64,000 nucleotides of DNA from NCBI RefSeq assembly GCF_056712565.1, contig NZ_CM160072.1. The stretch is one strand, 5' to 3'. Below the pieces are notes generated by a model. That model searched no databases and was not told the origin of the DNA. It worked only from the letters and a program-made list of their open reading frames with translations. The translations under genes and the position numbers were made by a program. This document shows, in pieces, positions 1,641 to 49,313 of this stretch (its first letter is position 1; each line of letters begins with the position of its first letter).

Positions 1641-3593
<1,953 letters not shown>

Positions 3594-3596
3594 TCC

Positions 3597-4748
3597 TTAC
3601 AGCATCTCAATAAAGGCCGCGACACGGGTACTGAGCTGCCCGACATCCGAGGTGGAGTAGTCTGTTTCAATAGCGATATAAGGAATGTTGTGCTGCTGGC
3701 GCACATGACGTTTAATCGCCAGCGATTCCACCGCGTAGGTATGGCACGCCTGCAAAATCACATCAACTACGCCATCGACCTGATATTCCTCCACCATCTG
3801 GCTGAGCATTTTCAGGCGCTGATCGTTCGGCGAAACACAGGAGCAGCCAATCGCCAGATATTTATCCGCCAGCGCGTCGTAGACATCGCCCGTTTCTGCC
3901 ACGCATTGCTCGGTCGCTTTCGCCCCGGTGCAGTTTTCATAACCGACAACCCAGCCGCCATTCTCTTCAATCGCGCGCACCACTTTTTCTGCTGCGCCGC
4001 CAATCGGGCAGCCGGTGATTAAAATGCGCGGACGCGGGTCCAGTCGCTGGCCTTCTTCCCACTGCTGACGAACGCGGGCGGTCATTGCATCCAGTTCATT
4101 GATCAACGCCTCTTTATCGAACCGGAAGGTTGCGCCGTAAACCACTTTCAGAATGTCGCTGCCGCTAAGCGCCGGAGGATTTAACTGCCCAAGATGATAA
4201 AAGTTGGCCAGTGCGCGACGTTCGCGGTTTTTCAGCGCAATGGCATCGCGCAGAGCATCTTCGCTAATCTCGTGCCCAAAACGTTCTTCTACCGTTTTTT
4301 GCAAGCGCAGCATCTCGGCTTTCCATAATGCACGCGAGGCATCGTCCTTAACGCTGTTTGGCAACTGCATCACATGAACGGGCTTAAATTCTGCCATGTA
4401 TTCATACATTTTCTTTTTGCCGTCGCAGGTGGTTTCACCGACCACCAGATCAGAAAAGTAGAAGTAGGGGCATTTATCGGTTTTGCCGAAGCCGTAGCTG
4501 CTTTTAATCAGCGGGCAGAGGTTGCGCGGCAGATCTTTCTCGGCTTCTTCAATGGTTTCATCAGAGGTGGAACATAGCGAAACCACAACCGCACCGGCTG
4601 CCATCGGGATCTCTTGCGGCATAAAGGTGCAGTAGGTGCCAACCAGCGGAATGCCGCGCTCCTTGAGATCCATGACGGTGAGAAAGCCTTTCTGGCGAGC
4701 TTCAGAGAACTGATCGAAAATGGCGGGTAGATCGGTGACAAGTGACAT
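3597..4748 (-). CDS. yjiM: 2-hydroxyacyl-CoA dehydratase D-component-like protein
   Basis: ORF 3597..4769; start set at the Met of MSLVTDLPAIF to match the remembered K-12 length (383 aa); cysteine-rich HgdB/BcrC-like sequence. Confidence 0.85.
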   Translation of the reverse strand: MSLVTDLPAIFDQFSEARQKGFLTVMDLKERGIPLVGTYCTFMPQEIPMAAGAVVVSLCSTSDETIEEAEKDLPRNLCPLIKSSYGFGKTDKCPYFYFSDLVVGETTCDGKKKMYEYMAEFKPVHVMQLPNSVKDDASRALWKAEMLRLQKTVEERFGHEISEDALRDAIALKNRERRALANFYHLGQLNPPALSGSDILKVVYGATFRFDKEALINELDAMTARVRQQWEEGQRLDPRPRILITGCPIGGAAEKVVRAIEENGGWVVGYENCTGAKATEQCVAETGDVYDALADKYLAIGCSCVSPNDQRLKMLSQMVEEYQVDGVVDVILQACHTYAVESLAIKRHVRQQHNIPYIAIETDYSTSDVGQLSTRVAAFIEML

Positions 4749-7275: not shown

Positions 7276-7374
7276 TGCCTGATGCGCTACGCTTATCAGA
7301 CCTACATTATCTCTGCAATCTATTGAATTTGCGCGGTTTGTAGGCCGGATAAGGCGTTCACGCCGCATCCGGCA
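7276..7374. repeat. REP (repetitive extragenic palindrome) elements downstream of rpn
   Basis: GCCTGATGCGCTACGCTTATCAGACCTAC and GTAGGCCGGATAAGGCGTTCACGCCGCATCCGGCA motifs typical of E. coli REP sequences. Confidence 0.7.
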
Positions 7375-9794: not shown

Positions 9795-10136
9795 TCAGGC
9801 GACTTTCTGTTTACCCGCAATCACCCCAATAAACTCCTGCACCTGCCTTTGTTTACGCGCCGACAGCTTGCACACCTGGCGAAGCGACTGCATCAGTTCG
9901 CTCTCTTCGGCGGCGGGGGGTTGGGCGGTGAGGACAATACAGCCTTCCATCACTTTGACATCTATCGCCGTGCCAGTGGCAAAACCGGCGGCTTCCAGCC
10001 ACTGACCTTTCAGGGTGATGGCGGGAATACGGCTGTAATCCGGGTAGCGACTCGCATAACTCACGGTTAATTGACGGTTATTTGCCGGGGAGACTTCTGC
10101 TTCGAACGGTTGTGCAATAGAATGCGTGTCAGTCAT
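9795..10136 (-). CDS. symE: SOS-induced toxin-like protein SymE (AbrB/SpoVT fold)
   Basis: ORF 9795..10193; start set at [15 protein letters not shown] (113 aa) matching K-12 SymE; LexA-box-like site upstream. Confidence 0.88.
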
Positions 10137-10207
10137 GATTACTATTCTCCATAAATAGTGATTGTGATGAGCGGTGCGGGTGTGTTGGCGCACATCCGCA
10201 TCGCGCT
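10131..10207 (+). ncRNA. symR: SymR antisense sRNA (approximate bounds) overlapping the symE start and 5-prime UTR
   Basis: Placed by established knowledge of the symE/SymR type I-like pair; coordinates approximate, not derived from a promoter or terminator read. Confidence 0.4.
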
Positions 10208-19398: not shown

Positions 19399-19465
<67 letters not shown>

Positions 19466-40119: not shown

Positions 40120-40206
40120 TGGTGCGAGGGGGGGGACTTGAACCCCCACGTCCGTAAGGACACTAACACCTGAAGCTAGCGCGTCTACCAATTCCGCCAC
40201 CTTCGC
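40120..40206 (-). tRNA. leuV: tRNA-Leu (CAG anticodon), 87 nt with encoded CCA
   Basis: Reverse complement reads GCGAAGGTGGCGGAATTGGTAGACGCGCTAGCTTCAGGTGTTAGTGTCCTTACGGACGTGGGGGTTCAAGTCCCCCCCCTCGCACCA; type II tRNA with long variable arm. Confidence 0.95.
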
Positions 40207-40240
40207 ACAGTCATCTTACTTTTTTTGATATCGCCTCGTT

Positions 40241-40327
40241 TGGTGCGAGGGGGGGGACTTGAACCCCCACGTCCGTAAGAACACTAACACCTGAAGCTAG
40301 CGCGTCTACCAATTCCGCCACCTTCGC
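40241..40327 (-). tRNA. leuP: tRNA-Leu (CAG), variant copy with one substitution in the variable arm
   Basis: Identical to the flanking copies except GTGTTCTTACGGAC instead of GTGTCCTTACGGAC (tRNA sense). Confidence 0.93.
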
Positions 40328-40355
40328 CCAGTGCGAGCAATATCAACGTGGTTTT

Positions 40356-40442
40356 TGGTGCGAGGGGGGGGACTTGAACCCCCACGTCCGTAAGGACACT
40401 AACACCTGAAGCTAGCGCGTCTACCAATTCCGCCACCTTCGC
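40356..40442 (-). tRNA. leuQ: tRNA-Leu (CAG)
   Basis: Third tandem copy, identical to the copy at 40120-40206. Confidence 0.95.
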
Positions 40443-46383: not shown

Positions 46384-47457
46384 GTGGGGCAGCGAATACC
46401 TGTAACGCTTGGTAATATTGCGCCGTTGTCGCTAAGGCCGTTCCAGCCTGGACGGATTGCTCTGGTGTGCGAAGGCGGCGGACAACGTGGAATTTTCACG
46501 GCTGGCGTGCTGGATGAGTTTATGCGCGCGCAGTTTAATCCTTTCGATCTTTATCTCGGCACATCTGCCGGGGCGCAGAACCTCTCGGCGTATATCTGCA
46601 ATCAGCCCGGTTACGCGCGCAAAGTCATCATGCGTTACACCACAAAACGCGAATTTTTCGATCCATTGCGCTTTGTCCGTGGAGGAAATCTTATCGATCT
46701 CGACTGGCTGGTGGAGGCCACCGCAAGCCAGATGCCGTTGCAAATGGACACCGCAGCGCGGTTATTTGACAGCGGCAAATCGTTTTATATGTGCGCCTGT
46801 CGTCAGGATGACTATGCGCCGAATTACTTTTTGCCAACTAAACAAAACTGGCTGGATGTGATTCGCGCCTCCAGTGCGATACCTGGCTTTTATCGTAGCG
46901 GAGTGTCGCTGGAAGGTATTAACTACCTGGATGGTGGGATCAGTGATGCGATCCCGGTTAAAGAGGCGGTAAGGCAGGGAGCAAAAACGTTGGTCGTCAT
47001 CCGCACTGTGCCGTCACAAATGTACTACACGCCACAGTGGTTCAAACGCATGGAACGCTGGCTGGGTGACAGTAGCCTGCAGCCGCTGGTCAATCTGGTG
47101 CAGCATCATGAAACCAGCTATCGTGAGATTCAGCAATTTATTGAGAAACCACCGGGCCAGCTGCGGATATTCGAAATTTATCCGCCGAAGCCATTGCATA
47201 GTATTGCGCTCGGCAGTCGGATTCCGGCGCTGCGTGAAGACTATAAACTTGGGCGTTTATGTGGGCGTTATTTTCTGGCAACGGTCGGTAAATTATTGAC
47301 TGAAAAAGCGCCGCTGAGCCGCCATCTGGTGCCGGTGGTGACGCCGGAGTCGATCGTTATTCCGCCTGCGCCAGTCGCCAACGATACGCTGGTTGCTGAA
47401 GTGAGCGACGCTCCGCAGGCGAACGACCCGACATTTAACAATGAGGATCTGGCTTGA
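46384..47457 (+). CDS. yjjU: Patatin-like phospholipase-domain protein YjjU
   Basis: ORF 46348..47457; GTG start at 46384 chosen to match the remembered K-12 length (357 aa); GGGxRG and GTSAG patatin motifs. Confidence 0.85.
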   Translation: MGQRIPVTLGNIAPLSLRPFQPGRIALVCEGGGQRGIFTAGVLDEFMRAQFNPFDLYLGTSAGAQNLSAYICNQPGYARKVIMRYTTKREFFDPLRFVRGGNLIDLDWLVEATASQMPLQMDTAARLFDSGKSFYMCACRQDDYAPNYFLPTKQNWLDVIRASSAIPGFYRSGVSLEGINYLDGGISDAIPVKEAVRQGAKTLVVIRTVPSQMYYTPQWFKRMERWLGDSSLQPLVNLVQHHETSYREIQQFIEKPPGQLRIFEIYPPKPLHSIALGSRIPALREDYKLGRLCGRYFLATVGKLLTEKAPLSRHLVPVVTPESIVIPPAPVANDTLVAEVSDAPQANDPTFNNEDLA

Positions 47458-48233
47458 TTTGCCGTTTTATCGACACCCACTGCCATTTTGATTTCCCGCC
47501 GTTTAGTGGCGATGAAGAGGCCAGCCTGCAACGCGCGGCACAAGCGGGCGTAGGCAAGATCATTGTTCCGGCGACAGAGGCGGAAAATTTTGCCCGCGTG
47601 CAGGCGTTAGCGGAAAAATATCAACCGCTGTATGCCGCATTGGGCTTACATCCTGGTATGTTGGAAAAACATAGCGATGTGTCTCTTGATCAGCTACAGC
47701 AGGCGCTGGAAAGGCATCCGGCGAAGGTGGTGGCGGTGGGGGAGATCGGTCTGGATCTCTTTGGCGACGATCCGCAATTTGAGAGGCAGCAGTGGTTACT
47801 CGACGAACAACTGAAACTGGCGAAACGCTACGATCTGCCGGTGATCCTGCATTCACGACGCACGCACGACAAACTGGCGATGCATCTTAAACGCCACGAT
47901 TTACCGTGCACTGGCGTGGTTCATGGTTTTTCCGGCAGCCTGCAACAGGCCGAACGGTTTGTGCAACTGGGCTACAAAATTGGCGTAGGCGGGACTATCA
48001 CCTATCCACGCGCCAGTAAAACCCGCGATGTCATCGCAAAATTACCGCTGGCATCGTTGTTGCTGGAAACCGACGCACCAGATATGCCGCTCAATGGTTT
48101 TCAGGGGCAGCCTAATCGCCCTGAACAGGCCGCCCGTGTGTTTGCCGTGCTTTGCGAGTTACGACCGGAACCGGCGGATGAGATTGCCGAAGTGTTGCTT
48201 AATAACACCTATACGTTGTTTAACGTGCCGTAG
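47454..48233 (+). CDS. yjjV: TatD-family metal-dependent DNase/hydrolase YjjV
   Basis: 259-aa ORF with HxH metal-binding motif near the N-terminus (DTHCHFDF); 4-nt overlap with yjjU. Confidence 0.9.
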   Translation: MICRFIDTHCHFDFPPFSGDEEASLQRAAQAGVGKIIVPATEAENFARVQALAEKYQPLYAALGLHPGMLEKHSDVSLDQLQQALERHPAKVVAVGEIGLDLFGDDPQFERQQWLLDEQLKLAKRYDLPVILHSRRTHDKLAMHLKRHDLPCTGVVHGFSGSLQQAERFVQLGYKIGVGGTITYPRASKTRDVIAKLPLASLLLETDAPDMPLNGFQGQPNRPEQAARVFAVLCELRPEPADEIAEVLLNNTYTLFNVP

Positions 48234-48445
48234 GCCGGACAAGGCGTTTACGCCGCATCCGGCCGTTGGCGCACAATGCCTGATGCGACGCTGACGCGTC
48301 TTATCATGCCTACAAGTCTGTGCCGAACCGTAGGCCGGATAAGGCGTTCACGCCGCATCCGGCAGCTGGCGCACAATGCCTGATGCGACGCTTGACGCGT
48401 CTTATCATGCCTACAGGTCTGTGCCGATCCGTAGGCCACATCCGG
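48234..48445. repeat. BIME/REP cluster with a tandemly duplicated ~100-bp unit
   Basis: Two near-identical units, each TAGGCCGGA(C/T)AAGGCGTT(T/C)ACGCCGCATCCGGC...GCGCACAATGCCTGATGCGACGCT...CTTATCATGCCTACA, then a third REP-like palindrome. Confidence 0.75.
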
Positions 48446-48449
48446 CATG

Positions 48450-49313
48450 TCACAAATATAGCGCCGGAAATATTAACCGGCTCACCCCGCGCTCCCGTAA
48501 CGCATCAGCCAGTTGTTCCACATCCTCCGGCGTGGCGCTCGGCCAGCTTTGCGCCTCGCCATACACGCCGTGGGCATGAAACGCGTTCAGGCGTACCGGA
48601 ACATCGCCAAGTCCCTTGATTAACGCCGCCAGTTCTTCGATATGTTGCAAATAATCCACCTGGCCAGGGATTACCAGCAAACGCAGTTCCGCCAGCTTAC
48701 CGCGCTCTGCCAGCAAACAGATGCTGCGCTTGATCTGCTGATTATCGCGTCCGGTTAATTGCTGATGACATTCGCTCCCCCACGCTTTGAGATCGAGCAT
48801 TGCGCCGTCACACACCGGGAGCAATTTTTCCCAGCCGGTTTCGCTCAACATGCCGTTACTGTCCACGAGGCAGGTGAGATGGCACAGTTGCGGATCGTTT
48901 TTGATGGCAGTAAACAGCGCCACCACAAACGGCAACTGGGTCGTGGCTTCGCCGCCGCTTACCGTTATCCCTTCAATAAACAGAACCGCTTTGCGGACAT
49001 GGTTAAGCACCTCGTCCACGCTCATGGATTGCGCCATTGGCGTAGCATGTTGCGGACACATCTTCAGGCAGGTATCACATTGCTCGCAGACAGCCGCGCT
49101 CCACGCCACTTTGCCGTCGACAATCTGCAACGCCTGATGCGGACACTGCGGCACGCACTCTCCGCAATCATTACAGCGCCCCATCGTCCACGGATTGTGA
49201 CAGTTTTTGCAGCGCAGATTGCAGCCCTGCAAAAACAGAGCCAGACGACTGCCTGGCCCGTCAACGCAGGAGAAGGGGATAATCTTACTGACTAAAGCGC
49301 ATCTGCTGTTCAT
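48450..49313 (-). CDS. yjjW: Glycyl-radical enzyme activating enzyme (radical SAM) YjjW
   Basis: 287-aa ORF with cysteine-rich N-terminal region and ferredoxin-like Cys clusters; 29-nt overlap with yjjI. Confidence 0.9.

Follow-up and report, generated by a model that had tools for sequence, protein, structure and literature searches.

The convergent genes yjjV and yjjW are separated by a spacer that is almost certainly a BIME-2 (bacterial interspersed mosaic element, type 2), in which two tandem units of ~100 bp, each pairing a Y REP with an inverted Z2 REP, are closed by a decayed Y REP. The array lies in a 64,000-nt stretch of contig NZ_CM160072.1 (RefSeq assembly GCF_056712565.1), which we call the window and whose coordinates are used below. 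The family is long known, and the array adds detail to it and nothing new in kind.

Structure of the yjjV-yjjW spacer

To define the repeat, positions 48228-48327 were aligned globally with positions 48328-48428, which gave 94 identical positions, 6 substitutions, and one 1-nt indel. A repeat finder returned two direct-repeat families in tandem register, one of 65 nt with 94% identity and a spacing of 100, the other of 54 nt with 89% identity and a spacing of 101. The tandemly duplicated ~100-bp BIME/REP unit described in an earlier note on this DNA is borne out by both analyses, although its extent, given there as 48234-48445, has to be corrected to 48228/48230 to 48447. Tandem Repeats Finder produced no rows for the window, but the same tool detected the K-12 allele (4.1 copies, period 101, score 751), and we therefore regard its silence as a false negative, the array here having only about two copies, and reject the absence of a tandem repeat, since direct alignment shows the duplication. 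Patterns of consensus length for Y REPs and Z2 REPs had 0.00 expected matches in shuffles of the window, so that the REP matches between yjjV and yjjW are not due to chance. The Y and Z2 consensus sequences used here agree with those quoted in the literature.

Unit 1 (48228-48327, plus strand, 100 nt), delimited by the direct repeats and by alignment with unit 2, consists of an inverted Y REP, a short linker, a Z2 REP, and an outer linker. Its Y REP, with the classical consensus orientation on the minus strand, occupies 48230-48263 and has 1 mismatch in 34 positions, with a predicted RNA hairpin of -22 to -24 kcal/mol. The inner linker CGTTGGCGCACAAT (48264-48277) leads to the Z2 REP (48278-48313, plus strand), which ends in ATCATGCCTAC, has 1 mismatch in 36 positions, and is predicted to form a hairpin of ~-15 kcal/mol; the outer linker AAGTCTGTGCCGAA follows at 48314-48327. 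Alignment of units across strains and with those of REP325 identifies both linkers as locus-specific. Unit 2 (48328-48428, plus strand, 101 nt), delimited in the same way, contains a Y REP at 48330-48363 (minus strand, 0 mismatches in 34, hairpin ~-21 kcal/mol) and a Z2 REP at 48378-48414 (plus strand, hairpin ~-15 kcal/mol), which the alignments show to have one extra T in its loop. A terminal Y REP remnant (GTAGGCCACATCCGGCA on the plus strand) lies on the minus strand at 48431-48447, has a predicted hairpin of ~-4 kcal/mol, and, compared with an intact terminal Y REP, lacks 18 internal nt. The deleted segment lay between two CGGC direct repeats, and the terminal REP is intact in E. coli GPEC172 and in E. 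albertii.

In the nomenclature of Gilson, Bachellier and Hofnung, as summarized by Ton-Hoang et al. (2012; PMC3333891), a BIME-2 is a tandem array in which Y and Z2 REPs alternate and are joined by short linkers. The yjjV-yjjW array has this organization. Its REPs alternate in orientation, with the Y REPs matching the consensus on the minus strand and the Z2 REPs on the plus strand, and the latter are of Z2 rather than Z1 type (local alignment scores of 33 and 18, respectively). The linkers (inner, 14 nt; outer, 14-16 nt) are short, unlike the long IHF-binding L linker of BIME-1. The units were previously described as a REP palindrome plus a conserved tail, of which the palindrome stands, but the tail (GCGCACAATGCCTGATGCGACGCT...CTTATCATGCCTACA) is a short linker and a complete Z2 REP; because each unit thus holds a Y REP and a Z2 REP of inverse orientation, it is a canonical BIME-2 unit. 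Likewise, the third REP reported to follow the two units is indeed a Y REP, but a decayed remnant and not an intact copy. The entire 216-nt spacer is occupied by the BIME, and the array is extragenic, the first 6 nt of unit 1 (CCG TAG) being its only overlap with the end of yjjV.

Other features shared with published BIME-2 elements (PMC3333891) are the position between convergent genes, the GTAG foot and 2-base stem mismatch of the Y REP, and a unit number that varies among strains, as was already documented for this class. Three peculiarities are local: the yjjV stop codon is part of the first REP, the closing Y REP has lost an internal segment, and both Z2 copies carry ATCATGCC in place of ATCAGGCC. 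None of these is an essential difference.

No hairpin with a U tract, as expected of a Rho-independent terminator, was found by a terminator scan of either strand of the spacer (48234-48449), and a scan for promoter-like sites in the spacer was also negative. A candidate sigma-54 site in the inner linker (TGGCGCACAATGC) was rejected on inspection, its GG-to-GC spacing being 8 nt and not 10. Open reading frames of 35-99 aa cross the array on both strands (48248-48619; e.g., 48248-48448, minus strand, 66 aa) and might be mistaken for genes in annotation. We rejected a protein-coding reading and took these frames to be by-products of the repeat, because they shift with unit number and consist of REP sequence. 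Elsewhere in the window, perfect Y-type REPs are present at 7340-7373 (minus strand) and 19400-19433 (plus strand), and there is no other Z2 REP or naRNA4-type match within the 64 kb. The scan of the window at Rfam gathering thresholds also returned the SymR antitoxin RNA (10131-10207, plus strand, 95.8 bits) and a tandem set of three 84-nt tRNA genes, all with the same score (40123-40442, minus strand).

The array and the ends of yjjV and yjjW

The location of the array between convergent genes, as first described, is confirmed by the open reading frames and by RefSeq annotation of identical and related genomes. On the left is yjjV (47454-48233, plus strand), encoding a TatD-family metal-dependent hydrolase of 259 aa, and on the right is yjjW (48450-49313, minus strand), encoding a glycyl-radical enzyme activase of 287 aa. 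Junction comparison showed that the last codon and stop of yjjV (CCG TAG, 48228-48233) belong to the first repeat unit. The stop codon itself (TAG, 48231-48233) sits within the GTAG (48230-48233) of the first Y REP, whose stem begins at 48234. At the other end, the yjjW stop (48450-48452) is 2-3 nt from the terminal REP remnant.

Two types of yjjV end were distinguished among the strains. In type 1, seen in the window, K-12, and others, the protein ends in ...FNVP, and the CCG TAG is supplied by the repeat unit. In type 2, seen in SE15, O157 Sakai, and others, the protein ends in ...V(S/R)G and the gene has a TAG of its own, with a 9-nt gap before the REP. Junction-specific searches of 5,426 complete E. 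coli genomes found type 1 in 1,620 and type 2 in 3,671. Together, the two types place a REP at 0 or 9 nt from the stop of yjjV in ~98% of complete E. coli genomes, and in ~30% the REP supplies that stop. Neither junction type is confined to a single Escherichia species, and the YjjV C-termini of other genera are too variable to polarize them.

Within yjjV itself, the sequence CTGGCATCGTTGTTGCT at 48049-48065 (plus strand) matches, with one difference, an intragenic sigma-54 binding motif, which in K-12 yjjV is CTGGCATCGTTATTGCT (site IS56; PMC4591121). This motif faces the array, ~170 nt downstream.

Unit number among E. coli strains

To count units, genomes were searched with the 400-bp flanks only, and the span of the match was converted to spacer length. 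This query replaced one of 601 bp that contained the REPs, whose matches elsewhere hid the flanks. Among the 59 sampled genomes in which both flanks were found together, 2 had no unit, 14 had one, 12 had two, 5 had three, 9 had four, and 17 had five, so that copy number does vary among strains, as the earlier note had stated, from 0 to 5 in this sample and up to 11 in another Escherichia species (below). We read in sequence one allele for each unit number from 0 to 5 (the window providing the two-unit and K-12 the four-unit example) and two atypical two-unit alleles. The alleles read share one plan: yjjV, n copies of the Y-Z2 pair, a closing Y REP, and yjjW. Some E. coli have a single REP only at the locus, and decay of the terminal REP differs among strains.

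Flanks 100% identical to those of the window are found in ST95-type strains, such as UTI89, APEC O1, and IHE3034. The 60 best matches to the window flanks had two units in 59 cases, and the remaining strain, SCU-172, had one. The flanks of SCU-172 are 100% identical to those of the window, and its single unit is a hybrid, with variants of unit 1 in its 5' part and variants of unit 2 in its 3' part; the crossover falls in the identical stretch GGCGCACAATGCCTGATGCGACGCT. A hybrid of this kind indicates an in-register homologous loss of one period, and unit number thus changes by in-register homologous exchange between neighboring units, as shown here for one event. A TGCC|TGAT site is cleaved in vitro by the REP-associated transposase, and because the crossover interval contains this site, the deletion fits ordinary homologous exchange and transposase-mediated exchange alike.

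Of 5,423 genomes, 4,782 have 400-bp flanks only 90-95% identical to those of the window (47828-48848 with the array), whereas identity to K-12 over the surrounding 10 kb is ~97%. UTI89, APEC O1, and IHE3034, apparent lineage relatives of the window strain, have flanks identical to the window; SE15 carries a different haplotype, with ~93.5% flank identity and the other yjjV junction. Such divergence at yjjV-yjjW suggests old alleles or recombination at the locus.

In E. coli GPEC548 (NZ_CM142809.1, extracted region 2100-3500), IS621, an IS110-family element with a bridge-RNA recombinase, is inserted in a Z2 REP of the array. The insertion is at ATCATGCCT^AC, equivalent to 48303-48313 of the window and 1 mismatch from the published natural target of IS621, ATCAGGCCTAC. 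Both Z2 copies of the window carry ATCATGCCTAC, which also differs from that target by 1 mismatch.

Distribution beyond E. coli

A search of the genome collection with a degenerate pattern for a conserved motif of YjjV yielded 19 species. Within Escherichia, one unit was present in E. albertii, four in E. whittamii, two in Escherichia sp. E1V33, and one in a divergent genome labelled E. coli. The longest array seen, with 11 units in a 1,117-nt spacer, was that of Escherichia sp. MOD1-EC7003 (extracted region 3260-4350). All five of these arrays have the same locus-specific linkers. In the other genera recovered, no array was found in the sequence examined after the yjjV stop: yjjV and yjjW overlap by 12 nt in Kosakonia pseudosacchari and by 26 nt in Enterobacter sp. 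kpr-6, and the 151-nt spacer of Citrobacter sedlakii had no REP in the portion examined.

The presence of the array in several Escherichia species and its absence from the other genera recovered point to a gain in the Escherichia lineage. Units at yjjV-yjjW share 90-98% identity among strains but only ~80% with those of REP325, from which they differ in the linkers, in agreement with multiplication in place. Judged from these comparisons, the array probably entered the yjjV-yjjW junction in an ancestor of the genus and then multiplied there.

Comparison with REP325, naRNA4, and REPINs

A REP array of closely similar plan is REP325 of K-12, which lies between yjdM and yjdN and on which the Rfam naRNA4 family was built. 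The two share a 100-nt period, the order of parts (a Y REP with GTAG first, a linker, a Z2 REP, a linker), the orientation relative to the upstream gene, and matches above threshold to the Rfam naRNA4 model, RF02564. On the plus strand, this model matched unit 1 at 48233-48310 with 73.7 bits and unit 2 at 48333-48411 with 76.5 bits (gathering threshold, 59.5), whereas the minus-strand scores of 51.5 and 48.3 bits fell below the threshold. The six units of REP325 score 95-111 bits. Since RF02564 also picks up a BIME-2 elsewhere, near phnD, and all units of the MOD1-EC7003 array, a match reflects a Y-Z2 unit and does not establish naRNA4 identity. The yjjV-yjjW array is not the REP325 locus: it lies elsewhere, has two units instead of six, and has two unrelated linkers. 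REP325 also lies inside an operon, in contrast to the convergent setting examined here, in which any terminator or stabilizer effect would act on two opposing transcripts.

The array also resembles the REPINs of REPIN/RAYT systems, REP doublets that are mobilized by REP-associated tyrosine transposases, in that adjacent inverted REPs can form one long hairpin (-41 to -62 kcal/mol) and the GTAG and stem mismatch needed for transposase binding are present. It differs from them in that there is no transposase gene in the window, and in that its units, which share linkers, appear to have multiplied in place and not by dispersal.

Possible roles of the array

The spacer RNA folds more stably than shuffled sequence on both strands (z = -7.0 and -7.2, one per strand), with predicted hairpins of -21 to -24 kcal/mol for the Y REPs and ~-15 kcal/mol for the Z2 REPs. 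If transcription of either convergent gene continued into the spacer, the REPs would fold as stable hairpins, which would be expected to block 3'-to-5' exonucleases and partly to halt RNA polymerase, so that the array would form a shared, two-way 3' end for the yjjV and yjjW mRNAs. As DNA, the Y REPs would be preferred gyrase sites. In the window strain, the first hairpin may in addition lower YjjV translation, because it begins directly after the yjjV stop.

By analogy with characterized REPs, the array is likely to act as a two-way hairpin block at the 3' ends or as a partial terminator, and as a gyrase site. Partly Rho-dependent termination and stabilization of mRNA have been reported for REP325, and higher expression has been reported for convergent gene pairs with a REP. 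Cleavage by gyrase is reported to be enriched in BIME-2 elements, mainly at Y REPs, with binding and cleavage described for a subset of these elements. It is plausible, from the work on REP325, that copy number affects the stability of the flanking mRNAs, the effect proposed when the array was first noted; the REP325 study itself found no general difference in half-life for genes with a terminal REP, and strong dependence on context. A search of the supplements of REP papers for yjjV and yjjW returned a single match, an unrelated row of a differential-expression table. The array is not essential, since there are E. coli alleles with a single REP and related genera without the spacer. The range of 0 to 11 units has no evident pattern, and near-neutral drift of selfish DNA would account for it as well as a tuned function would; the number of units probably matters little and drifts. 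Taken as a whole, BIME-2 identity, ancestral entry, a two-way 3'-end role, and a gyrase site make up the best explanation that we can offer, and one that we hold with moderate confidence.

Several other accounts of the array were weighed against this one. The array could be selfish or junk repeat DNA, nearly neutral in effect, that the REP-associated transposase machinery seeded once and that persists because it does no harm between two convergent 3' ends; it would then have no function specific to the locus and would drift in unit number by slippage or unequal exchange. The spread from 0 to 11 units is consistent with this idea, as are the single-REP allele, the relatives in which yjjV and yjjW overlap with no spacer, the different decay of the terminal REP among strains, and the IS621 insertion tolerated in one of them. 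What makes us doubt it, while taking it as a real possibility, is that several Escherichia species have kept the array at this site, its linkers conserved and neither type of REP degraded, that the scan of the spacer found no other terminator for either gene, and that experimental effects are reported for REP325, an equivalent element. The two accounts overlap, since a selfish origin can be compatible with a working 3' end. A narrower proposal, drawn by analogy, is that the main role would be a translational brake on YjjV, in which the hairpin at the stop codon would stall terminating ribosomes, the mRNA would be cleaved, and YjjV output would fall, with the tandem units incidental. The placement of the TAG within the foot of the first Y REP, immediately before its stem, and the presence of a REP at 0 or 9 nt from that stop in nearly all complete E. 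coli genomes would suit such a brake, given the published rule that REPs less than 16 nt from a stop codon lower translation (Liang et al., 2015, as quoted by a citing paper). As a main role we consider it unlikely, because it leaves the Z2 REPs and the tandem units unexplained, and because the yjjW side is exempt here, the weakly folding remnant being followed by a next stable stem that is ~38 nt from the stop.

It has also been proposed for REP325 that ~80-nt naRNA4-like RNAs, together with HU, bridge REP cruciforms and condense the chromosome, and a nucleoid-organizing noncoding RNA locus of this kind might be suspected here, since both units pass the RF02564 gathering score on the plus strand. 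We find this scarcely credible for the yjjV-yjjW array, because the model detects Y-Z2 pairs generally, the units score well below those of REP325 (74-77 against 95-111 bits) and have other linkers at ~80% identity, and a 2026 preprint contradicts the nucleoid role of naRNA4. The authors of that preprint, among them the senior author of the original study, found neither a stable HU-RNA-DNA complex nor any nucleoid change or REP-REP contacts. Finally, unit number and the REP at the yjjV stop might together act as a heritable, stepwise dial on yjjV and on the yjjW-yjjI glycyl-radical enzyme genes, which we consider very unlikely. If it were true, Escherichia lineages would be set to different expression levels by their 0 to 11 units, and the variation would not be neutral.

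Implications

The explanation that we prefer, a BIME-2 of probable ancestral origin that would serve as a two-way 3' end and a gyrase site, is of small significance for the family, whose make-up and variation in unit number were described decades ago and of which this array is one more example. For the biology of Escherichia, the locus is a possible natural test case in the current debate on whether REP arrays act as two-way terminators and mRNA stabilizers between convergent genes, as it combines a spacer made up wholly of BIME, a yjjV stop codon supplied by a REP, a natural series of 0 to 11 units, and presence across Escherichia species but not in the other genera recovered.
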